A stretch of DNA of 64,000 nucleotides from Acidobacteriota bacterium. GTDB taxonomy: Bacteria; Acidobacteriota; Aminicenantia; UBA2199. The stretch's first letter is position 1. Every line of letters starts with the position of its first letter. The notes beneath the pieces are model-generated. The model made no database searches, was not told where the DNA came from, and saw nothing but the letters and a program-made list of their open reading frames with translations. The stretch lies in assembly GCA_025456205.1 (NCBI GenBank), contig JALOLA010000002.1, forward strand, positions 7,363-71,362, given 5' to 3'. A program made the translations under genes and the position numbers. Shown here piece by piece: positions 1,011 to 60,038 of the stretch.

Positions 1011-1103
1011 CAGTGGTTGTGATAGTGATCGTGTCAGCAGCCGCAATATAGCAAATTTATATTATTTCGCTTGTTTTTCCTGCCACTACCACTCTCTTGC
1101 TGT
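1011..1103. repeat. Hexamer word arrays: a GTGATA-type arm at 1011-1040 and a CCACTA-type arm at 1079-1103, around an AT-rich core.
   Basis: The sequence cagtggttgtgatagtgatcgtgtcagcag ... cctgccactaccactctcttgctg lies between convergent gene ends. The same word families occur at 31341-31414, 41387-41419 and 44152-44302. Confidence 0.55.
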
Positions 1104-1385
1104 TTATAACGACCCGCTGTAGCTGGTATTGCTCTCCCCGTCCCGCGCCACCCAGCCGACGCGATCCCTGAGCCGCGCGGCGAACTCCGGCACGGTCCAG
1201 TCGCTGCCGGCCCAGCCGATATCGACCTGGGCCATGAAGCGCCGCGGCGCCTTGCCGCTTTCGAGCAGCGTGACAATGTAATAACAGTTGTCGTTGCGCT
1301 GGTCGTAGCTGTCGAACCCTGCCGTCCACGAGCGGGATGGATCGATGACAATAGGTTCGCTGAAACAAGGCCATGCGAATTCCAT
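1104..1385 (-). CDS. Hypothetical 93-aa protein, second gene of a two-gene minus-strand operon.
   Basis: ATG is preceded by GGAGG with 5-nt spacing. It starts 14 nt after the stop of the upstream gene. No recognisable family. Confidence 0.6.
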   Translation of the reverse strand: MEFAWPCFSEPIVIDPSRSWTAGFDSYDQRNDNCYYIVTLLESGKAPRRFMAQVDIGWAGSDWTVPEFAARLRDRVGWVARDGESNTSYSGSL

Positions 1386-1399
1386 GACTGCCTCCGCTG

Positions 1400-2128
1400 T
1401 TATTTCAATTTCCCCGGCGCGAGTTCACGGTCGAGCAGCTCCAGGTAGCCTTCCAGCCACGGGGTGCTGATGCCGATGCACGCCTCGCCGCCGTTGGGGA
1501 ATTTCTCCCAGGCTTCCAGTATGGAGCGGGCGACGAAGCGCGCCGTTTTGTCATCATCGCTTTTGTCGGGCAGGGTAAAGAGGAGGGAGCGGCAGACGCG
1601 GGCATGGGCGTTCGCCCAAACGGCAAGGATCTCCGGGCCGGCGCGGCGCAGCGCCTCCACCAGGGCCTGGAGCCTGGCACGCAGCCGGCCGGCGTCCTGC
1701 CGGTGGCGATCCATGGTCTCGCGGGCCTCCTTCTCCTCGGCCGGGTTGGGCCGGCCGTGGTCGATGTAGTCGCCCAGGCTGCCGGCGGCACCCTGCAGGT
1801 CGTCGATCTCGCGGCGCAGTCGCTCCAGCAGCACGGCCTGCTCCAGGCAAAAAGCCGTCGCCTGGGAGGGGGACATGCGGGCCAGTTCCTCCTGGTCCTC
1901 GCTGCCGTTGATCATGTACTCGTGGCTCTGGAGATAACCATAGAACGTGCCGCATTGCGGGCAGCGGCGCGCGTGCGCCTTTTCGGGATCGGCCGTTGGG
2001 TCAATGACCGGCAGGACGATCAGCCGCTGCGCCGCTTCCGGCAGGGGACGATCCTGCTCCGGCGCCAGGTATTTGGCAAAGGAAGTCTCAGTGTCCTTGA
2101 GCGGACCACAGATCGGGCAGGCAACGAT
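1400..2128 (-). CDS. Hypothetical protein with an N-terminal CPICG...CPQCG zinc-ribbon. The proposed start is ATC at 2128. The ATG-only version is 1400-1915.
   Basis: The frame is open from TAA at about 2149. GGAGG lies 6 nt before ATC, and a TTGCTG-17-TATAAT promoter lies just upstream. There is no ATG, GTG or TTG between the stop and residue 72. Confidence 0.55.
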   Translation of the reverse strand: MVACPICGPLKDTETSFAKYLAPEQDRPLPEAAQRLIVLPVIDPTADPEKAHARRCPQCGTFYGYLQSHEYMINGSEDQEELARMSPSQATAFCLEQAVLLERLRREIDDLQGAAGSLGDYIDHGRPNPAEEKEARETMDRHRQDAGRLRARLQALVEALRRAGPEILAVWANAHARVCRSLLFTLPDKSDDDKTARFVARSILEAWEKFPNGGEACIGISTPWLEGYLELLDRELAPGKLK

Positions 2129-2145
2129 GGTATACCTCCAGAAAA

Positions 2146-2174
2146 ATTATATAAGGTTCAGCCCCGGGCAGCAA
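2146..2174 (-). promoter_or_regulatory. Sigma70-like promoter TTGCTG-17-TATAAT for the 2128-1104 operon.
   Basis: On the minus strand the -35 is at 2174-2169 and the -10 at 2151-2146, 17 nt upstream of the ATC and followed by GGAGG. Confidence 0.4.
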
Positions 2175-2389
2175 GTATCAGGCTTTAACCGAGCCGACAG
2201 TCGTAGTGCCAGTGATCGTGTCGGTTGCTGTTTTCTCTTACCATAAGCCTCACGCCGGCTGCTTTTTTCTTCCCTTACACTTTTCGCCGAGTGTTGTTTC
2301 CGGCCTTTCCTCGCCCGCATCCGGAACTAATCGCTGCCGGGCTGCGTTCTGAGTATTGTGAATGGCAACGCATCGTCAGGAGACGTTTT

Positions 2390-5360: not shown

Positions 5361-6182
5361 ATGAAAAAGATGATCTTGCGCGCGGGATTCCTGGCGATAT
5401 TCATCTTCTGCATCCTTGGGCCTGCGGCTCGCGCCGGAGGCTGGCCAGGGGAAAAGGCGGGTCCGGACAACTCGGGCCTTGCCCGCTTTGCCGGAACCTG
5501 GACGGGTCATGGGGCGGGCGAGGAAGTAAGGTTCAGGGACAAGAACGGGATGCTGGTGCTCACCGTCAAGCACAAAGCCGAATTCGTCTTCCAGGTCGAC
5601 AAGGGTGGCAAGGTCGAGGGCGAGGGGACCATAGAGTACGACCTGGAAAGAAACACCTCCGGCCTGGATGACCTTGTCGCCGGTGTCCATTCGCTGATGG
5701 GTCTGGCGCAGGTCCCCGAGATCGGCGTGAAAGGGGGGTTCGGCGAGGCGACAAAAAAGGCCGGCGAACAGGCTACCGACGTCAAGGGGGTGACCAAGAT
5801 CCAGTACGATGCCCCGCACTTGAAGAACGGGCCTGAGATCCGGCATTTCAAGTTCACGGGGACGGTCCACCAGGGCACGTACAAGAACAGCGAGGGGAAG
5901 GACCTCGGGGGCTTCCTGATCTCGCTGGATGAAGTGCTGAATTTTACGCTGATGGGCGGAGAACCCGACAACACCCTGGTCGCCGAATACGAGGTCAACA
6001 AGGTGAAAACCGAGGCCAGCTTCCCCTGCTGGTCCCCGTTCATCGAGGGGGACGGCATCATCCGCCAGGGCCCCGGAACCATCCATGTCGCCGAATTCCA
6101 GCAGAAAGGCAGCCATCGCAAAGGCAAACGCGTTTGGGAGGAATACGGCTACGTCTGGCTCGCCCGCCAGGTCGCAAAATAA
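5361..6182 (+). CDS. Secreted hypothetical protein (273 aa).
   Basis: Clear signal peptide (MKKMILRAGFLAIFIFCILGPAARA). Long clean ORF. No family recognised. Confidence 0.7.
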   Translation: MKKMILRAGFLAIFIFCILGPAARAGGWPGEKAGPDNSGLARFAGTWTGHGAGEEVRFRDKNGMLVLTVKHKAEFVFQVDKGGKVEGEGTIEYDLERNTSGLDDLVAGVHSLMGLAQVPEIGVKGGFGEATKKAGEQATDVKGVTKIQYDAPHLKNGPEIRHFKFTGTVHQGTYKNSEGKDLGGFLISLDEVLNFTLMGGEPDNTLVAEYEVNKVKTEASFPCWSPFIEGDGIIRQGPGTIHVAEFQQKGSHRKGKRVWEEYGYVWLARQVAK

Positions 6183-7340: not shown

Positions 7341-8072
7341 ATGAGCAATGAACTGGGGAACAGGTCGTATCGCGCCATCAAATGGCTGTGGCTGCTGCTG
7401 CAGGCCCTGATCCTGCCCCTGGCAGCCCTGCATGCCGTATCGCCGGCGATCCGCTGGCCGCTGGCCGGTACGCGCGGCATCGCCGGGATCCTGCCGACGC
7501 TGTTGCTGGGTCTCGTCGGCGCCCTCTTTCTTATCTTCTGGCTGATCGCTCAGGCGCTGCTCTCCATGGCCCGTTTCCCCCTGACCCTGAAAGGGGGAGC
7601 GCTCCTGGTCGGCGGCACCATTGCCCAGTTCACCTCCCTGGTCGTTTCGGGCGGCTCGTTCACGGCAGCGGCGTATGCGGTGTTTTTCGCCACCCTGGCG
7701 GCCCTGATCGTGCTGGCCGCCATCATGGCCGTGATGGCCAGCCGCCGGCGGATCGGCTCCCCGCGCGCCAGGCTGGCCGCCCTGCTGGCCCTGCTGCCGG
7801 CGGTGGGGCTGGCCTGGTTCCTGGCAACGCCGCTGCTCCCGGCGTTCTCCCGCCCGTCCTCATGGCGGCCGGCGCTCGACTGGCTGGTCCTGGCCCTCAA
7901 TTCCGGCCTGATCGTCTTCAGCCTCTACCGTTTCTCCGTCTTTGCCCCGCCTCCTGACAGCGACGCGGCCTACGGCCGGGAATGGGAGCGCTGGGCCGCC
8001 CCGACCATCATCATCCTGATCCTTTCGGCGACCGCCGCCATCGTGCTGGCGGGAATTGCCAGAAGGGCATAG
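7341..8072 (+). CDS. Polytopic membrane protein, unknown family.
   Basis: 243 aa with about 7 hydrophobic helices. Confidence 0.7.
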   Translation: MSNELGNRSYRAIKWLWLLLQALILPLAALHAVSPAIRWPLAGTRGIAGILPTLLLGLVGALFLIFWLIAQALLSMARFPLTLKGGALLVGGTIAQFTSLVVSGGSFTAAAYAVFFATLAALIVLAAIMAVMASRRRIGSPRARLAALLALLPAVGLAWFLATPLLPAFSRPSSWRPALDWLVLALNSGLIVFSLYRFSVFAPPPDSDAAYGREWERWAAPTIIILILSATAAIVLAGIARRA

Positions 8073-8301
8073 GGTTATTCGAGCCCGGTGTTACCCTGAA
8101 AGCCGCCCCGCCCCACTCCGACGGGGTCCCGACTTTTGGGGACGCTTGCAATATTAGAATTAGGACTTTGGACTTTCATTTATCCGTTTCAGCTCGTTTT
8201 CGTGATCAGCAATTCGCTCAGGCTCAGACGGGTGCAATTGTAAAGGAAAGCCTGCATGGCAAAAACGGTGGTATGACGGGGAAGATGCCGGGTTTGACGA
8301 C

Positions 8302-14578: not shown

Positions 14579-14628
14579 GTAAAGGAAAAAGATGAAAGTG
14601 GAAAGTGAAAAGCAAAAAAAAATCACTG
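14579..14628. repeat. Purine-rich word array (TGAAAG/TGGAAAG/TGAAAAG).
   Basis: gtaaaggaaaaagatgaaagtggaaagtgaaaagcaaaaaaaaatcac, in the spacer between the ATPase and acyl-CoA synthetase genes. Confidence 0.45.
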
Positions 14629-14788
14629 GCGGACGGCAGAAGAGAAGATCGTATCGGGGTCGGCGCTTGATATCGCGGCCCTGGCGGTATAGACTGCCCC
14701 CATGCGGCATAAGCGCCCGACTTTTTTAATTCCCAATGCCAGGAACTGATTCCAGGATGGATCCGGAACCAATGATCAGGGGGTGACG

Positions 14789-16631
14789 ATGTCCCGCACG
14801 CTGAACCGCCTATTTGTCGAGAGCGTTGAGAGATTTCCCGGCCGCGTCCTGCTTTGGGAAAAAAGGGGGCCGCGCTACGAGGGGATCACCTATGCCGAAA
14901 TGCGCGAGCAGGCGCAGCGCTTCGGCGCCGGGCTCATGCGCCTCGGCGTCCGCAAAGGGGATCGCATCGCCCTCATCTCCGAAGGCCGCGCCGACTGGGT
15001 GTGGAGCGAGCTCGGCATCCTCCTCGCCGGGGCGGTGAACGTCCCCATATCGGTCCGCGTCGACGAGCTGTCGGAACTCAAGTTCCGCCTTGCCCACTCG
15101 GGCTGCCGGCTGGCGGTGGTGTCGCGCAGCCAGCTGGCCAAGGTCCGGCAGATAAAGAACGACCTGCCGGAACTGGAAAAAACCATCGCCCTCGATCCCC
15201 CGGAGGACCTGCAGAAGGACGAGCTGACCGGCGACGACGTCCGGCGCCTGGGCGGCGAATTCCTGGCCGGCAGCGAAAGGGAGTTCACCGACCGCTGGCA
15301 GTCCGTGGGCGAGGGCGACTACGCCACCATCAGCTACACGTCGGGAACGACCGCCGAGCCCAAGGGCATCATTCTCACCCACCGCAACTATACGGCCAAC
15401 ATCGAGCAGGCCAACTCCCTCATCCCCTGCCCGCCGCGCTACGTGACCCTGCTCATCCTGCCCTGGGACCATGCCTTCGCCCATACCTGCGGCATCTACG
15501 CCATGATGAAGAACGGCGCCGCCCTGGCCGCGGTGCAGCAGGGAAAGACCGGCCTGGAGACGCTGAAGAACATCCCGCAGAACATCCGCGAGATCCGGCC
15601 CACCATCCTGCTGAGCGCCCCGGCCCTGGCCAGGAACTTCCGCAAGAACATCGAGAAAGGCGTCCAGGAGAAGGGCGCCGGCGTGGAGTCGCTGTTCCGC
15701 CGGGCGCTGCGCCTGGCCTATGACTACAACGGCGAGGGCTGGAACCGCGGCCATGGGCTGAAAAAGATCAGGAAGCCGCTCCTGCTCCTCTATGACCGGC
15801 TGATCTTCAGCAAGATCCGCCGCAATTTCGGCGGCCGTCTCGAGTATTTCGTCGGCGGCGCCGCGCTGCTGGACATCGAGCTGCAGCGGTTCTTTTACGC
15901 CACCCCGGCACCACAAGCTGGGGTCCTCGGGCCGGCCGGTGGCGAACCTGGATGTGCGCATCTGCGACGAGCAGGGCAACTCGCTGCCGCCTGGCAGCCG
16001 GGGCGAGATCGTGATCCGCGGCGAGAACGTCATGGCCGGCTATTGGAGGAACGAGAAGGCGACGCGGGAGGCCCTGCGCGACGGCTGGCTGTACACCGGC
16101 GACATCGGCTACCTGGACCGGGACGGCTTCCTCTTCGTCCTCGGCCGCAACAAGAGCCTGCTGATCGCCGACGATGGCGAGAAGTTCAGCCCGGAGGTCA
16201 TCGAGGAGACCATCTGCAGCCGCTCGCCGTACATCGAGCAGCTCATGCTCCACAACAACCAGTCGCCCTACACGGTGGCATTGCTGGTGCCCAACAAGGA
16301 GGCGCTCCTGCGCCGGCTTCACGAACAGGGACTGTCCTGCGCCGCCCGGGATGGCCAGGAAGCCGCGCTGCGGCTCCTGCAGGCGGAGATCAACGCCTTC
16401 CGTGACGACGGCGCCCACGCCGGCCTCTTTCCTTCGCGCTGGCTGCCGGCGGCGGTGGCCGTGCTCGGCGAGGGTTTCACCGAGCAGAACCGCTTCCTGA
16501 ACTCGACCATGAAGATGGTCCGCGGCCGCATCGAGGATTTCTATCGCAGCCGCATCGATCACCTCTTCACCGCCGAGGGCAAGCCCATCGTCAATCCCCG
16601 GAACCTGACCATCGTCAGCCGCTGGGAGTGA
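14789..16631 (+). pseudogene. Long-chain acyl-CoA synthetase (AMP-binding family) disrupted by an internal out-of-frame deletion near 15897-15905.
   Basis: The frame-1 product reads correctly up to LQRFFYA. The frame-3 product resumes at PRHHKLGSSGRPVANLDVRI...GYW...DGWLYTGDIG. The expected block of about 20 aa with the GYG-x-TE motif is absent. Confidence 0.8.
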
Positions 16632-17840: not shown

Positions 17841-17885
17841 CTTCTTCAACCGCGAACTTCGAGTTTTGAACTTCTTTCTTCAACC
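17841..17885. repeat. TTCGA-family heptad array in reverse orientation.
   Basis: cttcttcaaccgcgaacttcgagttttgaacttctttcttcaacc. Its reverse complement resembles the GTTCGAW...GTTGAAGAAG consensus. Confidence 0.5.
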
Positions 17886-21100: not shown

Positions 21101-23980
21101 TTGCGCATCAACGTCAAGCGTTTTTTTTGGACGATCGTCCTCCCCACGCTCCTGACCATCGGCTTGTTCATACTGCTGATCTTCCGCTTCATCATTCCCT
21201 ATTTCGAACTGAACATGCTGCTGCAGAAAAAGGAAATGATCCGCGAAGTGGTCAGTTCCAGCGTCAGCATCGCCGCCACCTGCCGGCAGCAGGCCCTGGC
21301 CGGGGAACTGAGCGAGGCCGCCGCCAAGGCCGCGGCCATCCTGCAGATCGGCAATATCCGCTATGGGGCCGGCAACAAGGATTATTGCTGGATCACCGAT
21401 ATGCGGCCGCGCATGATCCGCCATCCCTACCGCCCTGACTTGAACGGCACCGACCTCGGCGGCTTTCGCGATCCCCAGGGCAAGCCGCTCTTCGTGGAAA
21501 TGGTGCGCGTGGTCGAACGCAGCGGCTCCGGCTACGTTGACTACATGTGGCAGTGGATGGACGATCCCGGGCGCATCGTCCCCAAGATCTCCTATGTCCG
21601 CGGCTTTGCGCCCTGGGGCTGGATCATCGGCACCGGCATCTACATCGAGGATATCCGCCAGGAGATCGCCGGCATCAAGAAACGCCTGCTGCTGGTGCTG
21701 CTGCTGATCTCAGGCGTGATGGCGCTGCTCCTCAGTTTTATCGTCCGCCAGAACCTGAAGACGGAAATGAAGCGCAGCACGGCGGAGCGCGACCTGCTGG
21801 CGTCGCGGGAAAAATACAAGGCCCTGGTGGACGCCTCCACCGAAGGGACGTGGATGATCCTGGCCGGCGCCACCATTTATGCCAATCGCAAGCTGGGCGA
21901 GATCCTCCCCGGCATCGAGCAGCGGTCGATCAGCGACGATTTTCGTGAAGTCATCGCCCCGGAGCGCCGGGACGAGATCCGGGCGGTCGGCGCCTTCAGT
22001 CGCGGCGCGGACACGTTCCTGCGCCTGGAAACGCGCCTGCAGGCCGCCGGCGAACCCGCGGTCGACGCCATGCTCTCCATTTCCAAGATCGTCCTTTCCG
22101 GCAAGCGCGGCTATATCGTCATCATCAAGGAGCTGAGCCGACCGGGAGGAGCGAGCGGCGCTCCCCGCGAGCTGGCCGATCTCTGGGATTTCGGCTATTT
22201 CCAGGCGGCCCCGGGGAAGAAGGGCCGTTTCCTGGATGTCAATGCCGCCGCCATGGCGCTGCTGGGTTACACCGACCGGGCGGAACTGCTCACGATGAAC
22301 ATCGCCTCTCTGGTGCCCGACCGCGGAGAATGGAACGGCCTGTTGCGCGAGCTGGATCAGCGCGGCATCGTCAGCCGTTTCCCGCTGCAGATCAGGGCCC
22401 GGGACGGCTCGCTGCGTTCCATCCGGGTTTGGGCCCGGGTGCGGCGCGATGAGCAGGGAGCCATCAGCGGCAGCGACGGCATCATCGAAGACGCGTCCGC
22501 GCAGCATTTCCGCCTGCAAGCGGGGCAGGAACTGGCCGCTGATTGGCAAGCCATCCTCATGCGGCTGCAGCAGCCCGCGGCCCAGGTGATGCGCGAGGCC
22601 GTGGTTTGTCCCGACGATATGGCGCTCCGCGACGCCGCCGAGTTGATGGCCCTGCATGGAGTCGATGCCCTGCTCGTCCGCTCGGCGGCGGGAGTCCCCG
22701 TCGGCATCGTGACCGGCGGCGACCTGCGGCGGCGCGCGGCCGCCGGCGGCCGCCAGCCGTTGCTGGCCGTGAATGCCGTCATGAGTTCGCCCCTGCACGG
22801 CGTCGACGAAACCCTGTCTTTGGCCCGGGCCTGGGATGAAATGCGGCGGCTGGGCATCCGCCACCTGGCGATCCGGGACGCCGCCGGCGGGGTCAGGGGC
22901 ATGGTCGCCCGCAATGATTTCGATTGTGCCCTCCTGCAGCCCCGGCCCCTGCGGGCTGCCGCCGGCGAACCGCCGCCGTCCCTGGCCGATCTGCGCACCC
23001 AGTTCTTGAAGCTGCCGGAGCTGCTCGCAGTCTTCGTGCGCAGCCATGCCCGCAGCGAATGGCTGACCGGACTGACCACGGCCGTGGCCGACGGCAGCGC
23101 CGCCGCCGTCGCCGCCATGGTCGGCCGCGAGCTTGGCTCGCCGCCGGTTCCGTTCGCCTTCTTCGTTTTGGGCAGTGAGGGTCGGTCTGAGCCGACCCTG
23201 TTCACCGATCAGGACAACGCCCTGGTCTATCTCGATCCCGCCGCCGGCCAGGCGGAATCCTGCCGGCGTTATTTCCGCGAATTCGGCGAACGGATGAACC
23301 GCTTGCTGGCGCAAACGGGCTATGCCCCATGTCCCGGCCAGGTCATGGCCGGGAATCCGCGCTGGAACCAGCCGTTGGCGGACTGGAAGCATATCTTCAA
23401 CGAGTGGATCCTCCAGCCCGACCCGCAGAACCTCCTTGAATCCACCACCTTCCTGGACCTTCGTCCGGTCTGCGGCGAAGCCGGGCTGCTGCAGGAGCTG
23501 CGCGAGCATGTGCGCAGCACGCTTGCGCAAAACCCGGCCTTTTTCAGTCACCTGGCCCGCGTGTGCCTGCAATACAAGATCCCGCTGAACATTTTCGGCA
23601 GGATCCAAACCGAGTCGTCCGCTGCGAGTCCCAACCGCATCAATATCAAGAATCCCCTGCGGGTCATCGTCAACCTTGTCCGGCTCTACGCCCTGGCCCA
23701 CAACATCGGGGAAACGAATACGATGCTGCGCCTGCGCCGCCTTCATGAACGCGGGGTGGTCTCCGCCTCTTTTTTCCAGGACCTCGACTATGCCTGCGAT
23801 TTTCTCCTGAGACTGCAATTCCGCGGCCAATTGCGCGCGCTGCAAGCCCAAAAGCCGGCGGATCATTTCATTGCCCTGGATGAACTGGCGTCCGCGGAGG
23901 TCCAGGCCTTGAAGGCGATCCTGGCGGAGATCACCACGTTCCAAGCCAAGCTGAAGCATGATTTTTCCATCAGCGAATAG
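21101..23980 (+). CDS. Membrane sensor protein with the domain order Cache-like, TM, PAS, PAS, CBS pair, DUF294 nucleotidyltransferase, DUF294_C.
   Basis: TTG start at 21101, 5 nt after GGAGG. Cache-like block (YCWITDMRPRMIRHPY, GSGYVDYMW, WGWIIGTGIY). NTase motif GSEGRSEPTLFTDQDNA. The upstream 630 nt of the ORF overlaps the previous gene and was rejected. Confidence 0.8.
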   Translation: MRINVKRFFWTIVLPTLLTIGLFILLIFRFIIPYFELNMLLQKKEMIREVVSSSVSIAATCRQQALAGELSEAAAKAAAILQIGNIRYGAGNKDYCWITDMRPRMIRHPYRPDLNGTDLGGFRDPQGKPLFVEMVRVVERSGSGYVDYMWQWMDDPGRIVPKISYVRGFAPWGWIIGTGIYIEDIRQEIAGIKKRLLLVLLLISGVMALLLSFIVRQNLKTEMKRSTAERDLLASREKYKALVDASTEGTWMILAGATIYANRKLGEILPGIEQRSISDDFREVIAPERRDEIRAVGAFSRGADTFLRLETRLQAAGEPAVDAMLSISKIVLSGKRGYIVIIKELSRPGGASGAPRELADLWDFGYFQAAPGKKGRFLDVNAAAMALLGYTDRAELLTMNIASLVPDRGEWNGLLRELDQRGIVSRFPLQIRARDGSLRSIRVWARVRRDEQGAISGSDGIIEDASAQHFRLQAGQELAADWQAILMRLQQPAAQVMREAVVCPDDMALRDAAELMALHGVDALLVRSAAGVPVGIVTGGDLRRRAAAGGRQPLLAVNAVMSSPLHGVDETLSLARAWDEMRRLGIRHLAIRDAAGGVRGMVARNDFDCALLQPRPLRAAAGEPPPSLADLRTQFLKLPELLAVFVRSHARSEWLTGLTTAVADGSAAAVAAMVGRELGSPPVPFAFFVLGSEGRSEPTLFTDQDNALVYLDPAAGQAESCRRYFREFGERMNRLLAQTGYAPCPGQVMAGNPRWNQPLADWKHIFNEWILQPDPQNLLESTTFLDLRPVCGEAGLLQELREHVRSTLAQNPAFFSHLARVCLQYKIPLNIFGRIQTESSAASPNRINIKNPLRVIVNLVRLYALAHNIGETNTMLRLRRLHERGVVSASFFQDLDYACDFLLRLQFRGQLRALQAQKPADHFIALDELASAEVQALKAILAEITTFQAKLKHDFSISE

Positions 23981-37511: not shown

Positions 37512-37640
37512 ATGAGCAAGATCCTGAGGGCCATCGCGGCCGGCTGGGGAGCGAAGAAACTGGGCGGCGGCTGCATCTCGACCATCATCATCTTCATCAT
37601 CCTGTGGTGGCTCCTGAGCCATTTCGGCGTCTTTAAATAA
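37512..37640 (+). CDS. Small 42-aa membrane peptide, below the ORF-track cutoff.
   Basis: MSKILRAIAAGWGAKKLGGGCISTIIIFIILWWLLSHFGVFK. GGAGG lies 8 nt upstream. It starts 21 nt after the SPFH stop. Confidence 0.4.
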   Translation: MSKILRAIAAGWGAKKLGGGCISTIIIFIILWWLLSHFGVFK

Positions 37641-37692
37641 ACGGTTTGGGGAAGGTGCTCGGCATCCAGGTCGGCGCCGCGGGCAAAAAGAC

Positions 37693-37721
37693 TTGATCGT
37701 CCGGGGCTCCTGCGGTAAGAT
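37693..37721 (+). promoter_or_regulatory. Promoter TTGATC-17-TAAGAT for the GAF gene.
   Basis: Followed by a 21-nt leader containing AGGAG. Confidence 0.4.
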
Positions 37722-37742
37722 AGGGCCCAGGAGACCCGCACC

Positions 37743-38276: not shown

Positions 38277-38281
38277 AAAAA

Positions 38282-38489
38282 AAGGTTCGATGTTCGAAGT
38301 TCGACGTTCGAGGTTGAAGAAACAAGAAAACCTCTACGAGTTCGAGTTATTGTTTTATTCAGTAATCAGCTTTACCGTTTCTCAAAAATTCTAACCAGGA
38401 GATCGTTCGGTTTTGTATTCAGAAATCTTAGAACTTCAAACCTATTCTTCATCTTTCTCGTCACTTGTCACTCGTCACTTGTCACTTAT
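38282..38489. repeat. Composite element: a TTCGA-family heptad arm at 38282-38326, a partial complementary arm at 38427-38458, and a YYGTCAC heptad array at 38457-38489.
   Basis: GTTCGAT GTTCGAA GTTCGAC GTTCGAG GTTGAAG AAACAAG ... cttagaacttcaaacctattcttc ... tcgtcac ttgtcac tcgtcac ttgtcac. Confidence 0.8.
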
Positions 38490-39413: not shown

Positions 39414-39573
39414 CACCAAAAAAATGCAATAACTTTAGCGGGAAAAACCGCTCCTCAGCGAAAAAAATTAAAGCGATTGGATTTTTCCCGCTCATTCTCA
39501 GGTTTTTCGCACCCGTTGATTTAATTTGGAACAAGCGGGCGACCGGCGCCGTTACCCGACCTGGAGGAAGAGA

Positions 39574-41379
39574 ATGAATATCAAAAAAAATGCGATTTTT
39601 ATTGCCGCGTTCCTGGCTTTGTATTGGATCGTCCCCTTAGGCATCAACGGCCAGCAAGCCGCAGCCAACGATCCGGTGCTGAATTTCGATCATGCCTGGA
39701 AAACCCTGGATCGCAATTACGGCCAGTTCCTGGTCAAGCACGTCGACTGGGACGCCCTGTACCGGCTCTATCGCCCTATGGTCTCGGCAACCACGACGGA
39801 CCCGGAATTGTGGGACATCCTGCTGAGCATGATGGGGCACCTGAATGACGCGCACTTGGCCCTTGCCGACGGCAAACGCCGCGTCGCCGGCGGCCGCAAC
39901 AACGGCTCGTTCACGAATGATGAATTTTCCCTAAACCTGGTGAAGTCGAAATATTTGCAGGGCAAATTCACTGAAGCCCTGGGCGGGAGCTTCATCAGCG
40001 GCTGGCTGGGCGCAGGGGCCGGCTACCTGTACATCGGCGACCTGAAGGACGGTCTGGAGCCGATCACCAAGACCATCGACGCCGTCATGGCCGAGTTCGC
40101 CAAGGCCAGGGTCATGATCGTCGACGTGCGCAACAACCCGGGCGGCACCGGACGGGCCGTGGAGATCGTGGCCGGCCGTTTTGCCGACCGCCGGCGCCAC
40201 TACGAAACAGACCGCACCCGCTACGGCCCGAAGCATGACGATTTCTGGCCCGAGAACTTCTGCCACATCGAGCCGGGCGGCCCGCTGCAGTACAACGGCC
40301 CCACGGTGCTGCTGACGGACCGCATCAGCGCCAGCGCCGCCGAAGGCTTCACGCTCGCCATGCGCGTGCTGCCCCACGTCACGGTGGTGGGTGAAACCAC
40401 CGAAGGCGCTCTCTCCAGCCAGTTTCCCGAAAGAATGCCCAACGGCTGGACCCTGTGGGTGGCCTTCAAGGAATGCCGGGACCATGAGGGCGTCTGCTGG
40501 GACGGCGTCGGCATCCCGCCCGACCTGCGCGTCAACAACACGGCGGCCGATATCGCCGCCGGCCGCGACCGCATGCTGGAATTCGCCAAGCTGTATCTGG
40601 AAAAGGGGGCGCCGGCGCTCCAGGATGAGGCGAAAAGCCTCGTGGATGTGAAAATATCATTGGTGAATGAATACGCACGACTGGCAAAGGACAAGGGGGT
40701 CGAAGCGGCGGTCGCCATGCTCAACGCTGAAAGAACGGCAAGAAGCGGCATGTACTTCTTCTCTCCTGAGGAAGCCATGCAGGGGGCGGTTTCGTTCCTG
40801 GCCCGCCGGCAATACGCCGAAGCCCTGGGCCTGTTGCGCGCCTGCCGCGGGGACTTCCCCACGCTCGCCCACACCTATGCCATGCTGGCGCAAGCCTATA
40901 TCGGCTTGGGAGATGTCGCAAGCGCCGAGACGAGCATGAAGGAGGGCGAAAAGGTCGAGCCGATGTTCTCCTGGGAACGGACGCAGATCGAGCAGGCCAG
41001 GCTGGCGCTGCGCAAGGCCCAGCTGGGCTCGGCCGCCAAGCTCTTCGGCGAATCACTGGCCGTGGGTGGGGTGCCGGCCGCGGAAAAGAAACTGAAGCAG
41101 CTGCTGAAGAGCCGCCTGAACGGCCCGGTGTTCGACGAGGCCGATTTCAACGCCCTCGGCTACAAGCTGCTGCAGGAAAACCGGCTCGAATTGTCTCTCT
41201 ATGTGTTCGAGAAGAGCGCCCGGCTTTATCCCGATTCATGGAACGCCTGGGACAGCCTCGGTGAAGCGGCGGCCAAGGCGAACCGCAAGGAACAGGCGAT
41301 CGCCAGTTACCGCAAGTCCCTCGAGCTCAACCCCGGCAACAAGAACGGCCTGGAGATGCTCCGGAAGCTGGAACAGTAA
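39574..41379 (+). CDS. S41-family peptidase (tail-specific-protease-like) with C-terminal TPR repeats.
   Basis: GGAGG SD. Signal peptide. VDVRNNPGGTG and SASAAE motifs. TPR-like C-terminus. Confidence 0.85.
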   Translation: MNIKKNAIFIAAFLALYWIVPLGINGQQAAANDPVLNFDHAWKTLDRNYGQFLVKHVDWDALYRLYRPMVSATTTDPELWDILLSMMGHLNDAHLALADGKRRVAGGRNNGSFTNDEFSLNLVKSKYLQGKFTEALGGSFISGWLGAGAGYLYIGDLKDGLEPITKTIDAVMAEFAKARVMIVDVRNNPGGTGRAVEIVAGRFADRRRHYETDRTRYGPKHDDFWPENFCHIEPGGPLQYNGPTVLLTDRISASAAEGFTLAMRVLPHVTVVGETTEGALSSQFPERMPNGWTLWVAFKECRDHEGVCWDGVGIPPDLRVNNTAADIAAGRDRMLEFAKLYLEKGAPALQDEAKSLVDVKISLVNEYARLAKDKGVEAAVAMLNAERTARSGMYFFSPEEAMQGAVSFLARRQYAEALGLLRACRGDFPTLAHTYAMLAQAYIGLGDVASAETSMKEGEKVEPMFSWERTQIEQARLALRKAQLGSAAKLFGESLAVGGVPAAEKKLKQLLKSRLNGPVFDEADFNALGYKLLQENRLELSLYVFEKSARLYPDSWNAWDSLGEAAAKANRKEQAIASYRKSLELNPGNKNGLEMLRKLEQ

Positions 41380-41386: not shown

Positions 41387-41419
41387 GAGTGTTAGTGATA
41401 GTGATAGTGTTAGTGCAGG
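41387..41419. repeat. GTGATA/GTGTTA hexamer array.
   Basis: gagtgttagtgatagtgatagtgttagtgcagg, 8 nt after the S41 gene stop. Confidence 0.7.
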
Positions 41420-44149: not shown

Positions 44150-44151
44150 AA

Positions 44152-44302
44152 AGAGAAGAAGGTGCCAGTGATAGTGATAGTCTTAGGGTAAGAGAAGATA
44201 AAAAATGGCACTTTTTGCTCTTCTCGCTGACACTGACACTGACACTGTCACTGGCATTCGATCGAGTCTCCTGCAACCACTACCACTATCACAACCACTT
44301 GC
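44152..44302. repeat. Hexamer-array hairpin (GTGATA arm at 44164-44197, CACTGA arm at 44217-44255) plus a CCACTA array at 44271-44302.
   Basis: gccagtgatagtgatagtcttagggtaagagaag / loop / ctcttctcgctgacactgacactgacactgtcactggc. The outer 8 bp are perfect. Confidence 0.85.
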
Positions 44303-44338
44303 AAATCGATATGGCTTTATGCCCTCACTGATTGTAAA

Positions 44339-50587: not shown

Positions 50588-50593
50588 ACAGAC

Positions 50594-50630
50594 CATCGTG
50601 ACGCGTAACTCGTGACGCGTGACGCGAAAG
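50594..50630. repeat. CGTGACG heptad array directly after the tricorn gene stop.
   Basis: catcgtgacgcgtaactcgtgacgcgtgacgcgaaag. TGA or TAA occurs every 7 nt. Confidence 0.7.
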
Positions 50631-50653
50631 AGCAGACGCCAGGTCTGCTTTTC
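50631..50653 (+). terminator. Rho-independent terminator of the tricorn-like gene.
   Basis: Stem agcagac / gtctgct with loop gccag, followed by tttc. The stem extends with flanking gaaag/ctttt. Confidence 0.6.
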
Positions 50654-50688
50654 GGGTTGATGGGTTTGCGGGTATTGGGGTTAAGGGG
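50654..50688 (+). other. G-run cluster matching a G-quadruplex motif.
   Basis: GGG ttgat GGG tttgc GGG tatt GGGG ttaa GGGG. Confidence 0.35.
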
Positions 50689-50729
50689 TCTGTATAAGGC
50701 AAGAATTCGAACTCGTTGCCCTGACTCTT

Positions 50730-52327: not shown

Positions 52328-52516
52328 GGTCCCTCCACTAGCGACATCATGATTATGGCGGAGGACCGGCGAAATTTCAAGTCGGGGCCGTTGCGGCATG
52401 TCGGGTTCAGGATGACCGGGCTTCCCGCCCATCCCCGCACTTGACTTCGCCGGCCGGGTCGGCTAAGGTAAGCGGCGGCGGCGACGGTCGTGCCGGCCGC
52501 CGGGAGCATCATCGCC

Positions 52517-53890
52517 ATGGAAGGAGCCAGCGCCCTGTTCTTCAGCTTCTGCCTGCTGGGGCTCTTTCTCCTGCTCGGCAAGGCGTTGCGCGTGGCCGTG
52601 CGCCTGTTCCAGGCCATCTACCTGCCTTCCTCGATCCTGGGCGGTTTCATCGCCCTGGCCTGCGGCCCCTACCTGCTCGACCTGCTGCCGCTTTGGGTGG
52701 GACGCGAGTGGGCGCAGGTCCCCGGACTGCTGATCAACCTGGTGTTCGCCAGCCTGTTCCTGGGCGTCGCCCTGCCGGGGGGGCGCGCGCTCTGGGACCA
52801 GGGCGGCGCGCAGCTCTGCTTCGGCATGGTGGTCGGGCTGGGCCAATACGTCGTCGCCCTGCTGCTCACCGTGCTGGTGCTCACGCCGGTTTTCGGCGTG
52901 CCACCGGTCTTCGCCTGCCTCCTGGAGATCGGCTTCTCCGGGGGCCACGGCACGGCCGCGGGCATGGCCGGGGTCTTCCAGGAGGTCGGCTTCCCGGCCG
53001 GAGCGGCCCTGGGACAGATGTCGGCCACGGTGGGCATCATCACCGCCGTGGTCGGCGGCATCCTGTTCATCAATCTCGCCCTGCGCAGGGGCTACCGCAC
53101 CCTCGGCGCCGGCAAGGGCCACGGCCAGCTCCGACCCTCGACCGGCCTGCTGAGCCGGGAGCAGCGCTTTCCGATCGCCCGGGCCACCGTCTCGCCCGAA
53201 TCGCTGGAGCCGTTCGCCTTCCACTTCGCCCTGGTGGCGCTGGCCGTGCTCCTGGGCTGGGTCATGCTGGGCGGCGTGCGCGCCCTGCACCCGCTGCTGC
53301 GCGGGTTCCCGCTTTTTCCCCTGGCCATGATCGGCGGCCTGCTCATCCAGGCGCTGGCAAGGCCGCTGCGCGTCGACCGCTACTTCGACCGCGACACCTT
53401 CGAGCGCATCCTCGGCTTTTCCATCGACATGCTGGTGGTGGCGGCCATCGCCACCATGCGCCTCGACCTCTTCGTGGCCAACTTCTGGCCGTTCCTGCTG
53501 CTGATGGCCGCGGGCATCGCCTGGCTGGTCTTCACCCTGGCCGTGCTGGCGCCGCGCATGTTCCCGCGCTACTGGCTCGAGCGCGGCATAACCGAATACG
53601 GAATGCAGAGCGGGGTCACGGCCATCGGCCTGCTGCTGCTGCGGCTGATCGACCCGCTGTACGACACCGGCACGGCCGAGGCCTTCGGCTTCAAGCAGAT
53701 GGTCTACGAGCCGCTGCTGGGCGGCGGGCTGGTCACCGCCACCGCCCCCTTCCTGATCGTTCGCTACGGCGCCTGGCGGTCGCTGGCCCTGGCCGCCGGG
53801 ATCATGGCCTTCTTCTGGTTCGTGTCGCTGTTGAGCGGCTGGTTCCGCCTGAAGCCGTGGCCGGGGGGAGCCGGAGACAGTAGTCAGTAG
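52517..53890 (+). CDS. gltS: Sodium/glutamate symporter.
   Basis: The N-terminus aligns with the remembered E. coli GltS start. EIGFSGGHGTAAGM motif. About 10-12 TM helices. Confidence 0.85.
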   Translation: MEGASALFFSFCLLGLFLLLGKALRVAVRLFQAIYLPSSILGGFIALACGPYLLDLLPLWVGREWAQVPGLLINLVFASLFLGVALPGGRALWDQGGAQLCFGMVVGLGQYVVALLLTVLVLTPVFGVPPVFACLLEIGFSGGHGTAAGMAGVFQEVGFPAGAALGQMSATVGIITAVVGGILFINLALRRGYRTLGAGKGHGQLRPSTGLLSREQRFPIARATVSPESLEPFAFHFALVALAVLLGWVMLGGVRALHPLLRGFPLFPLAMIGGLLIQALARPLRVDRYFDRDTFERILGFSIDMLVVAAIATMRLDLFVANFWPFLLLMAAGIAWLVFTLAVLAPRMFPRYWLERGITEYGMQSGVTAIGLLLLRLIDPLYDTGTAEAFGFKQMVYEPLLGGGLVTATAPFLIVRYGAWRSLALAAGIMAFFWFVSLLSGWFRLKPWPGGAGDSSQ

Positions 53891-54009
53891 CCAGTAGTCA
53901 GTAGCCAGTAGACAGTAGTTAGTGGAAATACCTTCAAAGAAAAATATTCAGCGAAAGTTTTCGGGAATTGCCTTTTTACTGACTGCCAACTACTGGCTAC
54001 TGACTACTT
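53878..54009. repeat. CAGTAGY heptad array (53878-53925) and its reverse complement (53977-54009), forming a 19-bp perfect inverted repeat.
   Basis: agtagtcagtagccagtag at 53879-53897 pairs with ctactggctactgactact at 53990-54008. The array begins inside the last codons of gltS. Confidence 0.9.
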
Positions 54010-54020
54010 TCATTGATCGC

Positions 54021-54049
54021 TTGTCCCTGAAGATCAATTGGTCTATCAT
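54021..54049 (+). promoter_or_regulatory. Promoter TTGTCC-17-TATCAT, predicted leaderless for the ATG at 54057.
   Basis: The -10 overlaps the first ATG (54048) and ends 7 nt before the second ATG (54057). Confidence 0.35.
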
Positions 54050-54915: not shown

Positions 54916-54940
54916 CGACTCGTCTCGCGTCACGCGTTAC
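54916..54940. repeat. CGTGACG-family words in reverse orientation.
   Basis: cgactcgtctcgcgtcacgcgttac. Confidence 0.4.
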
Positions 54941-56591: not shown

Positions 56592-56700
56592 GAAGGGCCT
56601 CCAGGAATTTTATTCTAGGCGGCGTCGGGATGTTTGTCAAACCATTGCCGCTGCTCGGCATGCGTTATGCGGCACGCGTCACGAAGATCATTTCATCTTG

Positions 56701-57371: not shown

Positions 57372-57380
57372 GTACAGGCC

Positions 57381-57513
57381 CGATGTTCGATGTTCGAAGT
57401 TCGAAGTTTGAAAAAACAGCGGGAACTTTTTTTATAAAAACAGCAATCGTTCGAACCCTTCGCTGTTTATTCTTGTCTCTTCAACGTCGAAACTCGAACA
57501 TCGAACGACGAAC
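57381..57513. repeat. TTCGA-family hairpin element: left arm 57381-57413, right arm 57477-57513.
   Basis: 13-bp perfect inverted core gttcgatgttcga (57385-57397) / tcgaacatcgaac (57494-57506). A nested stem aaacagcg / cgctgttt is also present. Confidence 0.85.
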
Positions 57514-57518
57514 CCGCC

Positions 57519-58507: not shown

Positions 58508-58580
58508 GGCAAGAAAAAGGGCAAAAGGCACAAGTAAAAAGGCAAAAGGCAAAAGGAAAAAGGCAAAAGTCAGAAGCAGC
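58508..58580. repeat. GGCAAAA heptad array, about 9 units.
   Basis: ggcaagaaaaagggcaaaaggcacaagtaaaaaggcaaaaggcaaaaggaaaaaggcaaaagtcagaagcagc. Confidence 0.85.
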
Positions 58581-58601
58581 ACACCGTATACCGAGTTCTT
58601 C

Positions 58602-58631
58602 TTGTCGATTGTCACTGAAAAGTGCTAAAAT
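58602..58631 (+). promoter_or_regulatory. Promoter TTGTCG-18-TGcTAAAAT for the S37-like peptidase gene.
   Basis: Followed by an 18-nt leader with AGGAG. Confidence 0.4.
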
Positions 58632-58649
58632 GGACTCCAGGAGCGTCCC

Positions 58650-59984
58650 ATGATCCGGAAACGGCTGCTGGTCGTCTTTCCCTTGCTGCTGTTGCTTCTA
58701 TTTTCCTGCCGCCGGGAAGAAGAACTTACGGTCCTGGAGCGGCTGGAAAGGATCCCCGGCCTCACGGCGACGGCCATCACCCCGCCCTCCGGCTTCACCC
58801 AGGCATTCCAGGTCGATCTCGCCCAGGCCATCGACCATGACGCCCCCCAGCGCGGCACCTTCCCCCAGCGCTTCTATCTTTCCTATCGCGGCGAGGATGC
58901 GCCGACCGTTTTCTATACTTCCGGGTACGGCATCTCCCGCAACTACGAGAGCGAGCCGGCGGCCCTGCTGCAGGCCAACCAGGTGCTCATGGTGCACCGC
59001 TATTTCCCCGACGCCGTGCCCGCGGCCGATGACTGGAGCTTCCTGACCATCGCCCAGGCGGCCGCCGACCAGCACGAGGTACGCTCGCGGCTGGCGGAGA
59101 TCCTTCCCGGCAAGTGGCTGAGCAGCGGCGCCAGCAAGGGCGGCATGACCGCCCTCTATTACCGCTATCATTACCCGGCCGACGTCGCGGCCACCGTGGC
59201 CTACGTGGCGCCGATCATGAAGCAGGCCGACGACCCGCGCTTCGCCGCCTTCCTGGGCGCGCTGGGGACAACGGCGTGCCGTGAAAGGATCCGCCGCTTT
59301 CAGCGCCAGGTCCTGGGGCGGCGGACGGCCATGCTCGCCCTGGCGCAGGCCCACGCCCTGGATAGAGGCTATGCCTTCACCGTCTTCAGCGTAGCCGAGG
59401 CATTCGAGTATGCCGTCAGCGAGTATCCCTTCGCCTTCTGGCAGTACGGCAGCGGCGACTGTGGCGTCATTCCCGCCGAGAGCGCCTCCGACCAGGAATT
59501 GTTCAACCACCTGGTCGCCGTCTCGCCGCTCTCTTTTTACGCCGATGCCGACTACAGCCACTATCGCCCGCTCTTCTACCAGGCCTACACCGAGATCGGC
59601 TATTGCCCCTATGTCGTCGACGGCATCCGCGACCTGTTGCTGGCGGTCCCCGAGCCATCCTACCGCGCCTTCGCCCCGCGCGGCGTGGAACTGGCGTTCC
59701 GCCCCGAGGTGATGGGGGCGGTTGTGCCCTGGCTGCAACAGCAGGGGACGCGCATCGTCTATATCTATGGCGGCAACGATCCCTGGACGGCGGCGGCGCT
59801 CCACCCGGCGCCCGGGCTTGACGCCCTGCAGGTGGTCCAGCCCGGCGCCAACCACAACGTGAAGATCAGGGACCTGGACCAGAGAGGGGCGGTGATCGCG
59901 GCACTGGAGAGGTGGCTGCAGATCGACATCGATGAGACCAGGCTGGCCGGCGTTGCCGGCGCTGAGGGCAGGGAGAGGTTTTAG
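58650..59984 (+). CDS. Serine peptidase of the S28/S37 (PS-10-like) type, probable lipoprotein.
   Basis: LLFSC lipobox-like signal and a GASKGG nucleophile motif. Confidence 0.7.
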   Translation: MIRKRLLVVFPLLLLLLFSCRREEELTVLERLERIPGLTATAITPPSGFTQAFQVDLAQAIDHDAPQRGTFPQRFYLSYRGEDAPTVFYTSGYGISRNYESEPAALLQANQVLMVHRYFPDAVPAADDWSFLTIAQAAADQHEVRSRLAEILPGKWLSSGASKGGMTALYYRYHYPADVAATVAYVAPIMKQADDPRFAAFLGALGTTACRERIRRFQRQVLGRRTAMLALAQAHALDRGYAFTVFSVAEAFEYAVSEYPFAFWQYGSGDCGVIPAESASDQELFNHLVAVSPLSFYADADYSHYRPLFYQAYTEIGYCPYVVDGIRDLLLAVPEPSYRAFAPRGVELAFRPEVMGAVVPWLQQQGTRIVYIYGGNDPWTAAALHPAPGLDALQVVQPGANHNVKIRDLDQRGAVIAALERWLQIDIDETRLAGVAGAEGRERF

Positions 59985-59993
59985 AGCTTGCGG

Positions 59994-60038
59994 CAGGTTC
60001 GCTGTTCGGAGTTCGACGTTCGAAGTTGAAGAAAATCA
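59994..60038. repeat. TTCGA-family heptad array (single arm).
   Basis: GTTCGCT GTTCGGA GTTCGAC GTTCGAA GTTGAAG AAAATCA. Confidence 0.75.

Follow-up and report, generated by a model that had tools for sequence, protein, structure and literature searches.

The intergenic spacers of a 64-kb stretch of the chromosome of an uncultured Aminicenantes-type Acidobacteriota bacterium (GenBank contig JALOLA010000002.1, positions 7,363 to 71,362; "the window" denotes this stretch at its full length) hold small extragenic repeat modules that are dispersed and make up a superfamily specific to the lineage. Each module measures ∼25–45 nt, or about four to seven units of 6 or 7 nt, and we distinguish five families: M1, (GTTCGAN)4 followed by GTTGAAGAA; M2, (AAAGGCA)n; M3, (GTGWYA)n; M4, (CGTGACG)4; and M5, (CAGTAGY)n. 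The window was compared with stretches of other genomes, assemblies, and contigs, which carry L numbers. The reading we favor, which we hold tentatively and at somewhat less than an even chance, is that the modules are dispersed elements like repetitive extragenic palindromic (REP) elements, bacterial interspersed mosaic elements (BIMEs), and short tandemly repeated repetitive (STRR) sequences, and that they would serve as hairpins at transcript 3′ ends or as insulators.

Tandem Repeats Finder reported 12 sites of period 7 in the window (29708, 29830, 31140, 31178, 38285, 38460, 50597, 53878, 53977, 57381, 58516, and 60004) and six of period 6 (31344, 31386, 41388, 44167, 44227, and 44276). 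An earlier reading of this DNA (hereafter, the original prediction) had listed 16 array loci. Ten of these are solid, with the periods it gave, whereas six (1011–1103, 2194–2224, 14579–14628, 17841–17885, 26661–26695, and 54916–54940) are weak, comprising two to three degenerate units or a partial module. With a stricter custom detector, we found 11 arrays, eight of period 7 and three of period 6, and none in the window with a period of 4, 5, or 8–12. Two hundred dinucleotide-preserving shuffles of the window gave a mean of ∼0.015 period-6/7 arrays each (maximum 1), an enrichment that bears out the original prediction, and shuffled pooled spacers gave none. All 11 arrays lie outside open reading frames (ORFs), that is, in ∼6.5–6.6 kb (10%) of the window, one of them starting 13 nt before a gene ends. 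Spacers (6.6 kb) contain the word GTTCGAW 21 times, and coding DNA (57.4 kb) contains it three times. The G+C content of spacers with arrays is 37%–48%, versus ∼62% for the window overall; the G+C of third codon positions (GC3) in its genes is 0.75–0.94. The confinement to noncoding DNA and the lower G+C content claimed earlier were thus both recovered.

The arrays are copies of modules of fixed length, as an all-against-all comparison of spacers made clear: Where four to nine units per array had been described, most arrays have about four. In its full form, M1 reads (A-rich)-AGG-TTCGAW-GTTCGAW-GTTCGAN-GTTCGAN-GTTGAAGAA-(purine-rich). Its eight copies (29703, 29863 on the minus strand, 31135, 38280, 57375, 57518 on the minus strand, 59994, and a degenerate one at 17885 on the minus strand) all align in one four-heptad register, and four of them are 89%–95% identical over 40–44 nt. 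Similar relations join the copies of M2 (31178–31209 and 58539–58570, 97% identical), M3a (31344–31372 and 44280–44308, 93%), and M3b (31379–31412 and 44220–44253, 88%). The exact common cores reported before are present at 31137/38282 (23 nt), 26670/58556 (20 nt), and 31396/44231 (17 nt). Modules also combine into mosaic clusters, M1+M2+M3a+M3b at 31135–31414 and M3b+M3a at 44220–44308, so that the order of M3a and M3b differs between the two sites. These are dispersed modular elements and not local slippage, as originally proposed, given the single register of the eight M1 copies and a 181-nt composite found at nonorthologous loci (described below). All five word families have more G than C on the sense strand, and none of the words contains GGG. 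One M1 tail carries CTCTTTAAC, the core of the Escherichia coli boxA antitermination motif, at 29736–29744 on the minus strand; this match is probably due to chance, because the other M1 tails read TTCTTCAAC. The copies in the window are collected in Table 1.

Table 1. Module copies and associated stems in the window
Feature	Position	Strand	Context
M3 arm (CAGTGGTTGTGATAGTGATCGTGTCAG)	1011–1041	+	7 nt past stop at 1003
M3 partner arm, GTGGTA/GTGGCA words on minus strand	1080–1102	-	1 nt past stop of minus-strand ORF 1104–1424
Degenerate M1 copy	17841–17885	-	Divergent spacer
Partial M2 copy	26661–26695	+	96% identical over 25 nt to 58551–58575; 36 nt past stop at 26624
M1: A-rich head, four GTTCGAN heptads, GTTAAAGAG tail	29703–29745	+	Distal hairpin arm, spacer between two minus-strand genes
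M1: three heptads and GTTTTAAGAA	29829–29863	-	Head 2 nt past stop of minus-strand MFS-like gene, sense; pairs with 29703–29745
M1	31135–31178	+	Divergent spacer, adjoins promoter region of MFS-like gene
M2 (AAAGGCA)n	31171–31221	+	97% identical over 32 nt to 58539–58570
M3a, GTGGTA/GTGATA words on minus strand	31340–31372	-	93% identical over 29 nt to 44280–44308
M3b, CAGTGT/CAGTGA on minus strand	31379–31414	-	88% over 34 nt to 44220–44253; promoter-like site 31431–31459 of plus-strand gene downstream
M1	38280–38323	+	7 nt past stop at 38276, sense
M4-type heptamer array, AGTGACR on minus strand	38457–38489	-	∼2 nt past stop of minus-strand methyltransferase gene, sense
M3 hexamer array GTGTTA/GTGATA	41387–41419	+	7 nt past stop at 41379, sense; without partner arm; 0 kcal/mol alone
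M3 arm (GCCAGTGATAGTGATAGT)	44162–44182	+	Past stop at 44149; pairs with 44227–44255
M3b, CAGTGWCAG words on minus strand	44220–44255	-	Partner arm of 44162–44182
M3a, GTGGTT/GTGATA/GTGGTA on minus strand	44274–44308	-	36 nt past minus-strand gene's stop at 44339, sense
M4, four CGTGACG units	50594–50630	+	∼9 nt past stop of tricorn-like protease, sense; kept at orthologous site in L252
Terminator-like stem GCAGAC-gccag-GTCTGC, then TTTT	50632–50652	+	Apex of long G-U-rich hairpin 50588–50695
M5, CAGTAGY x6.6	53878–53923	+	Overlaps end of gene 52490–53890, provides its stop codon
M5 partner arm	53977–54008	-	19-bp perfect core stem with 53878–53923, between two plus-strand genes
Short M4 array (CGCGTGACGCGAGACGAG on minus strand)	54916–54940	-	∼10 nt past stop of minus-strand transglutaminase-like gene, sense
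M1	57375–57416	+	Few nt past VKOR stop (57371), sense
Inner bidirectional terminator-like stem AAAACAGC...GCTGTTTATT	57413–57471	.	Between two M1 arms; kept in L253, L255, L262
M1	57474–57518	-	∼4 nt past ApbA/PanE stop (57519), sense; partner arm of 57375–57416
M2 array, AAAAGGC x7.7	58508–58580	+	Divergent spacer, upstream of promoter-like site 58602–58631
M1	59994–60035	+	∼11 nt past S37 peptidase stop (59984), sense
Degenerate M2 hairpin, absent from the original prediction	61625–61700	.	Orthologous L262 spacer (∼5600–5700) has a clear M2 → ← M2 hairpin

The modules are strictly oriented with respect to stop codons. When each of 21 copies was read with its G-richer (G > C) strand on top and its place scored from −20 to +60 nt relative to a same-strand stop, 15 lay past such a stop in word orientation and none in the mirror (antisense) configuration; the other six, which are partner arms or copies in divergent spacers, fell in neither class. 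This corresponds to ∼13 independent events (∼8 single copies and five pairs), all in the same sense (P ∼ 1e-4). The gap between stop and array is mostly 0–15 nt, and the array at 53878 provides the stop codon itself, as one does in L124. The first 60 nt past stops with a module have a composition of G 0.29, C 0.15, A 0.34, and T 0.22, with G > C in 13 of 13, compared to a GC skew of +0.05 past stops without one. Arrays occupy seven of 10 convergent spacers, five of 22 tandem ones, and two to four of eight divergent ones. The same rule holds in L124, L126, L139, L252, L253, L255, and L260, with one M4 copy of L255 lying antisense in the middle of a tandem spacer. In the Aminicenantes metagenome-assembled genome (MAG) L041, AGTGACR arrays directly follow both stops of a convergent pair, one of them then followed by M1, and in the Thermoanaerobaculia MAG L117 a hairpin with ∼35-nt arms begins at a TGA stop. 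In L141 (11201–11290), the stop codon of the MFS-like gene marks the start of a longer unit of 30 nt (TAGCCCCACAAGGGGACAGGCGCAACCGCC); this unit is present three times there and once in L129, L130, and L146, and its copy number is therefore polymorphic.

Where a spacer has two copies, these are without exception directed toward one another (→ ←) and form an imperfect stem of 25–40 bp. The reverse-complement partners noted in the original prediction are real at 1011/1080, 29703/29863, 44162/44255, 53878/54008, and 57381/57518, and the z-scores for RNA folding of the five inverted pairs range between about −2.5 and −13.5 (53870–54025, −6.6 and −13.5 for its two strands; minus strand of 57372–57518, −10.9, with −63.5 kcal/mol; 44150–44338, −4.2). 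Shorter terminator-like stems are enclosed in some of these structures: In 57372–57518, one is surrounded by M1 arms (57413–57471), and in 50588–50695, the stem at 50632–50652 lies within the pairing of a lone M4 array with a tract rich in G and U. These two inner stems fit the form of a canonical intrinsic terminator, a G+C-rich stem of 5–20 bp with a U tract directly behind it. The array arms are A+T-rich, and U tracts are present in few of them. A scan of the window for hairpin-plus-U-tract terminators gave no enrichment over shuffles, which makes another form of 3′-end signal plausible. The Rfam scan gave no hit at gathering score and, at E ≤ 1, one chance hit inside a gene. In a consensus fold of four sequences of the M1–terminator–M1 arrangement, both the long and the inner stem persist, and three base pairs have changes in both partners.

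Folded alone, single modules reach 0 (M3), −0.2 (M5), −1.9 (M2), about −5 (M1), and −9.1 kcal/mol (M4), and by these predictions are essentially unstructured as single strands. This would suit a periodic single-stranded RNA or DNA platform for an oligomerizing protein with a footprint of ∼6–7 nt, such as cold-shock-domain proteins or Rho-type oligonucleotide/oligosaccharide-binding (OB) folds, with hairpins being secondary; arrays that are richer in C than in G on the antisense strand could then load Rho on antisense or read-through RNA. The strict orientation, the G > C bias on the sense strand in all five word families, the conserved cores with a free spacer base, and a unit number that stays near four even when all units change in concert (see below) are all compatible with such a platform. 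Moreover, Bacillus CspB is reported to bind heptamer direct repeats, one protein per heptamer, in work cited in PMC4679880. However, five unrelated words would need several proteins or a very loose specificity, no candidate protein was identified, and many copies are paired with an exact inverted copy, down to the alternating T/C pattern of 53878/53977, which points to base pairing. We consider this explanation improbable.

Of the three roles originally put forward for the arrays, that of an RNA 3′-end or terminator structure fits best, considering their position past stops, their sense orientation, and the terminator-like stems that they enclose; a protein-binding platform and a selfish repeat fit less well. 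In the reading we favor, the array would be transcribed as the first part of the 3′ untranslated region (UTR) and, where a partner arm is present, would close a long hairpin that reinforces or replaces termination. Such a hairpin could insulate convergent or tandem genes from read-through and shield the 3′ end from exonucleases, as has long been proposed for REP hairpins and for those of STRRs (PMC2670836). The closeness to the stop codon suggests a coupling to the terminating ribosome, and we speculate that at distances of 0–15 nt the ribosome may influence hairpin formation. Units may be gained, lost, and homogenized by slippage, and whole modules may be copied into new spacers by transposition in trans or by ectopic conversion.

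Several observations weigh against a role at transcript 3′ ends. Roughly one in two stop-adjacent copies lacks a partner arm, and a module by itself is essentially unstructured. The asymmetry between G-U and A-C pairs is not consistently in favor of the sense strand (29636–29865 folds better on the antisense strand), and strand-specific G-U wobble was discarded as proof of an RNA role, being inconsistent among hairpins. Support from covariation is thin, the term for it being about zero in an alignment of four sequences. The copies in the divergent spacers at 31135–31414, 58508–58580, and 17841–17885 lie upstream of predicted promoters, where a 3′-UTR role cannot apply; those upstream of 31431–31459 and 58602–58631 are probably not transcribed. 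Across relatives, orthologous gene ends at 66%–82% identity mostly have no arrays, so no gene strictly needs them, and whole-spacer identity is at the neutral level between the window and each of L253, L262, and L252.

Arrays are nevertheless retained at some orthologous sites, in relatives with 76%–83% amino acid identity. The M4 block past the tricorn-like gene is retained in L252, and the M1–terminator–M1 arrangement past ApbA in L253, L255, and L262 (although L262 has no VKOR gene). L253 also retains, in degenerate form, the M5 hairpin located between the symporter-like gene and the methyltransferase gene. When M1–terminator–M1 was aligned over the four lineages, five of 54 hexamer-core columns were variable, versus six of eight seventh-base columns (Fisher's exact test, P ∼ 2e-4 by our own calculation), which points to selection on the GTTCGA/TCGAAC cores with the seventh base free. 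One arm is exactly one heptad shorter in L262, a 7-nt indel. An array directly upstream of the conserved VKOR −10 box (tgttataat) reads (AACGTCG)4 in L253 (7060–7090) and (AACGGCG)4 in L255 (8139–8169); the rest of the spacer differs at one base, and the orthologous site of the window (∼56660–56700) has no array. These four parallel T-to-G changes indicate that units homogenize while their number stays at four.

The same pair of genomes shows 85%–88% identity in coding DNA (73%–79% at third positions) and 126 identical positions of 127 in the VKOR–ApbA spacer, and its array-less spacers are not conserved. We do not take this as proof of selection: The flanking gene ends contribute 37 and 57 nt to the conserved tract, the other pairs are neutral, and short-tract recombination could explain it. 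The argument for selection rests, for this reason, on the contrast between core and seventh base.

Close relatives also differ in what they carry at one site: The spacer past the MFS-like gene holds an M1 hairpin in the window and in L126, a GTGTTA hairpin starting at the stop in L124, and nothing in L137. A 181-nt composite, made up of a loop and arrays of GTGTCA and GTGTTA, shows 82% identity between the ApbA–S37 spacer of L262 and a site upstream of the MFS-like gene in L124. L262 further contains a dispersed element of ∼120–180 nt built of GTAGATG/GGTAGAA-type heptads (822–1131 and 7954–8192), with three copies within 8.7 kb, the further copies 7 kb away, 90% identical over 120 nt and in inverted orientation. 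All this may be read as selfish, nonautonomous mobile DNA, like REPINs (hairpin-forming REP doublets) or MITEs (miniature inverted-repeat transposable elements), copied in trans by a transposase encoded elsewhere and accumulating where it is harmless, that is, just past stops and between divergent promoters, with effects on transcripts being incidental. The 89%–97% identity of same-module copies at unrelated spacers, the composite at nonorthologous loci, the element of L262 with its two further copies, the spacer found filled, filled with another word, or empty, the many array-less orthologous gene ends, and the copies in probably untranscribed stretches would all be expected; REPINs, moreover, share the logic of inverted doublets (PMC3116915). 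Yet we found no transposase, RAYT, or reverse transcriptase (nor a cas gene) among the ∼50 proteins of the window, and no transposase, RAYT, or reverse transcriptase in the gene-called, Pfam-annotated flanks of relatives. Nor did we find a target-site duplication or sharp element ends. An orientation that tracks transcription on both strands (15 versus 0) is unexpected from replication-coupled transposition of single-stranded DNA, and the conservation of cores while the seventh base drifts and the retention at orthologous sites in relatives sharing only ∼80% amino acid identity also speak against this explanation. We regard the selfish explanation as possible but rather unlikely.

A bolder form of the idea we favor is that the modules would be a hitherto unrecognized class of transcription-oriented gene-end signals kept by selection, replacing classical intrinsic terminators in Aminicenantes and other Acidobacteriota, with a block of about four heptads placed within reach of the ribosome at the stop and either read by a periodic single-strand-binding factor or sensed through a ribosome-dependent hairpin. 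This we hold to be doubtful at present.

Heptamer arrays are not peculiar to this lineage. We found GTTCGAW x3 at at least 119 genome loci of many phyla, prominent among the matches listed being PVC-group (Planctomycetes, Verrucomicrobia, Chlamydiae) bacteria, Desulfosporosinus, Geobacteraceae, and Acidobacteriota. In the 859 kb of matches listed, arrays other than the searched word number 117 for period 7, 11 for period 6, and 12 for period 8. Heptamer arrays of many words are widespread among bacterial phyla and are also present in IMG/VR viral contigs (L001–L119, L155–L245), with period 7 far exceeding periods 6 and 8. Among the matches listed, from many phyla, arrays have a random orientation with respect to genes. 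In Thermodesulfobacteriota and Desulfobacterales, the array seems, at several loci, to border on a start codon that could be annotated on the opposite strand (...ttcATtcgatgttggacGTTCGAT...). We rejected GTTCGAW as a word favored across phyla (28 loci in viral contigs, versus 7 and 56 for two composition-matched permutations), as well as GTTCGA as a relic of the tRNA T-loop (only six tRNAs in the 859 kb of listed array-bearing loci, one of them within 45 nt of an array). Heptamers have been reported as the most abundant class of long simple sequence repeats (SSRs) in prokaryotes, with polymerase slippage proposed as the cause of the heptanucleotide ones, in literature summarized in PMC4679880 and PMC4692102. 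The heptamer array is therefore a general, already reported phenomenon; what is lineage-specific is the fixed-length, dispersed, oriented, and multifamily organization.

The modules could be pure mutational by-products, without function or mobility: long SSRs made by slippage that favors 7-nt units, and purged from genes by selection against frameshifts. The abundance of heptamer arrays of many words across phyla and in viral contigs, the unit-sized indels and concerted changes seen between relatives, and the slippage model in the summarized literature agree with this. But all eight M1 copies share unit number, register, and the nonrepeat tail GTTGAAGAA, exact identities of 20–23 nt join distant loci, partner arms are inverted copies, and the orientation is strict. 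Copy number is also constant: Three assemblies of the same strain (L120, L121, and L122, from two Joint Genome Institute [JGI] metagenomes and one NCBI assembly) cover window positions 23523–39983 without gaps at 99.85%–99.99% identity, and eight arrays are equal base for base, with no indel or substitution within any array. The arrays are thus neither assembly artifacts, a possibility raised earlier and now checked, nor hypervariable contingency loci, whose SSR copy number differs among close strains; no such difference was seen across the window and these three assemblies. The fixed register, common tails, and orientation bias already largely refute pure slippage, and we consider it very improbable.

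The genes of the window are ordinary chromosomal ones, encoding a P-type ATPase, tricorn-like proteases, a methionine gamma-lyase, an RNase II-like protein, PBP1, peptidases, and transporters. The closest named relatives of their proteins come from Acidobacteriota and Candidatus Aminicenantes, and one ortholog with 76% identity sits on a 600-kb Aminicenantes MAG contig (CAVSZS010000013.1, source of L041 and L252) that was also recovered by the DNA-pattern scan. The source environments carry the JGI identifiers 3300037408 and 3300037461. A cyanobacterial origin was rejected, since the HIP1 palindrome GCGATCGC is seen four times against 5.2 expected and the proteins point to Aminicenantes. The 9.7 kb past the right end of the window (L246), with only five spacers, contain no arrays and are thus uninformative as a hold-out. 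An AMP-binding (acyl-CoA synthetase-like) gene is split across overlapping frames (14783–16405 and 15939–16631), through either a frameshifted pseudogene or a sequencing error. A 65-nt direct repeat, 94%–95% identical and with an exact 21-mer (ttcgatcgggcctgaggccgc), occurs at 34251–34315 and 35812–35875: The last ∼58 nt of the RNase II-like gene reappear directly past the stop of the next gene (34426–35811, 461 aa, no Pfam hit), which looks like an insertion between duplicated target copies. In L120 and L121, the JGI gene callers placed a 109-aa ORF wholly within the array-rich spacer at 31145–31495. We rejected a coding role for the 109- to 116-aa ORF called there, which is almost certainly spurious because the stretch has 40% G+C, compared to GC3 > 0.75 in real genes. 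The heptamer words are free of stop codons in several frames.

Three points were absent from the original prediction: the strictness with which modules are oriented to stop codons, the constancy of their unit number, and the taxon. If the bolder form of the idea held true, the long-mysterious heptamer repeats of bacteria (STRRs and long SSRs) would gain a function. The window and its relatives make an unusually clean case: The modules come in several word families and in blocks of fixed size, keep to one orientation past stop codons (15 to 0), conserve their cores but leave the seventh base free, and have orthologous copies in a number of uncultured Aminicenantes genomes. Testable predictions follow from this: Orientation should matter for read-through or mRNA stability, so should the number of units, and a binding factor may exist. 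In practice, gene callers place spurious ORFs in array spacers, and the repeats are likely break points in short-read assemblies of this widespread uncultured lineage.

Intergenic heptamer repeats were reportedly first noticed in cyanobacteria decades ago, by Mazel and colleagues in 1990, and were afterward seen in many other bacteria. To our knowledge, no function has ever been shown for them. The architecture had been thought to match no described class, but STRRs, heptamer long SSRs, and the Xanthomonas GGGAATC arrays are already described (PMC2670836, PMC4679880, PMC4692102). Cyanobacterial STRRs are intergenic tandem repeats of 7 bp that form hairpins; their function is unknown, and a role in transcript stability has been suggested (PMC2670836). 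The modules of the window share with STRRs and heptamer long SSRs the head-to-tail 7-bp units, the intergenic location, several word families per genome, and hairpins between genes, all of which we found. By structure, they belong with these repeats; by host they do not, given that strict STRRs are those of (heterocystous) cyanobacteria, whereas the relatives here are Aminicenantes/Acidobacteriota and HIP1 is not enriched in the window. They further differ from STRRs in their words, in being fixed-length dispersed modules of about four units with nonrepeat tails, in their strict orientation past stops, and in including 6-nt families.

REP elements are placed near gene 3′ ends and have roles in mRNA 3′-end protection and in termination. 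The original prediction set the arrays apart from REP/BIME and from CRISPR. This stands insofar as they have no palindromic core, no CRISPR layout, and no cas gene, but their mosaic, extragenic, inverted-pair organization works like that of REP, BIME, and REPIN elements. All of these are short extragenic dispersed repeats occurring as singlets and as inverted hairpin doublets in mosaic motif combinations. The modules have the short size (20–60 bp), extragenic location, and dispersal of REPs, with eight M1 and several M2–M5 copies in 64 kb, as well as inverted doublets and mosaic clusters. Single modules, at 0 to −5 kcal/mol with only M4 at −9.1, have no palindromic core per unit, and strict membership of REP/BIME fails for that reason. 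The modules also differ by their internal 6/7-nt periodicity. A RAYT (Y1 transposase) gene, which REPs would flank, was not seen in the proteins and flanks surveyed above. Ordinary REP-type elements are found in the lineage as well: In the Aminicenantes MAG L252 (11330–11511), a REP-like palindrome of the classical kind, headed by GTAG (ccccgtGTAGGGGCAACCcttgcGGTTGCCCtt), occurs twice.

A MITE would have terminal inverted repeats, a target-site duplication, and filled as well as empty sites; inverted arms were observed and L137 offers an empty orthologous site, but no duplication or sharp boundary could be defined. In a CRISPR locus, repeats of 23–50 nt alternate with unique spacers about as long, near cas genes, whereas the arrays are contiguous 6–7-nt units and the window proteins have no cas domains. 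The DNA uptake and uptake signal sequences (DUS/USS) of Neisseria and Haemophilus are abundant short words whose inverted pairs form terminators downstream of genes. They have one word per species, are not iterated in tandem, and are frequent inside genes too, whereas the modules of the window have several words and almost none inside genes. Marine Beggiatoaceae have intergenic TAACTGA direct repeats, with each set holding two to six copies in a fixed orientation to the adjacent genes (MacGregor 2015, PMC4679880), which have been proposed as the binding site of a post-transcriptional regulator (PMC4679880). These are unpaired, consist of a single word, and lie directly upstream of start codons, whereas the arrays described here lie directly downstream of stop codons.

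In architecture, the nearest published counterpart is the GGGAATC system of Xanthomonas, described together with the GGGGAYT heptamer arrays of Nostoc (Rehm et al. 2015, PMC4692102). The Xanthomonas arrays are 89%–93% intergenic, lie ∼28 nt from the neighboring ORF, and include ∼70 convergent pairs forming inverted repeats; related species have arrays between the same genes, though of differing length and sequence (PMC4692102). The Xanthomonas system has a single G-rich word with G-quadruplex potential, whereas the window has at least five non-G4 words: Where G-quadruplex heptamers have three or more G in each unit, M1–M5 contain no GGG. Finally, with respect to aligned ORFs, the Xanthomonas arrays are found on one strand about as often as on the other (30% versus 35%), whereas the modules of the window are uniform in their orientation.

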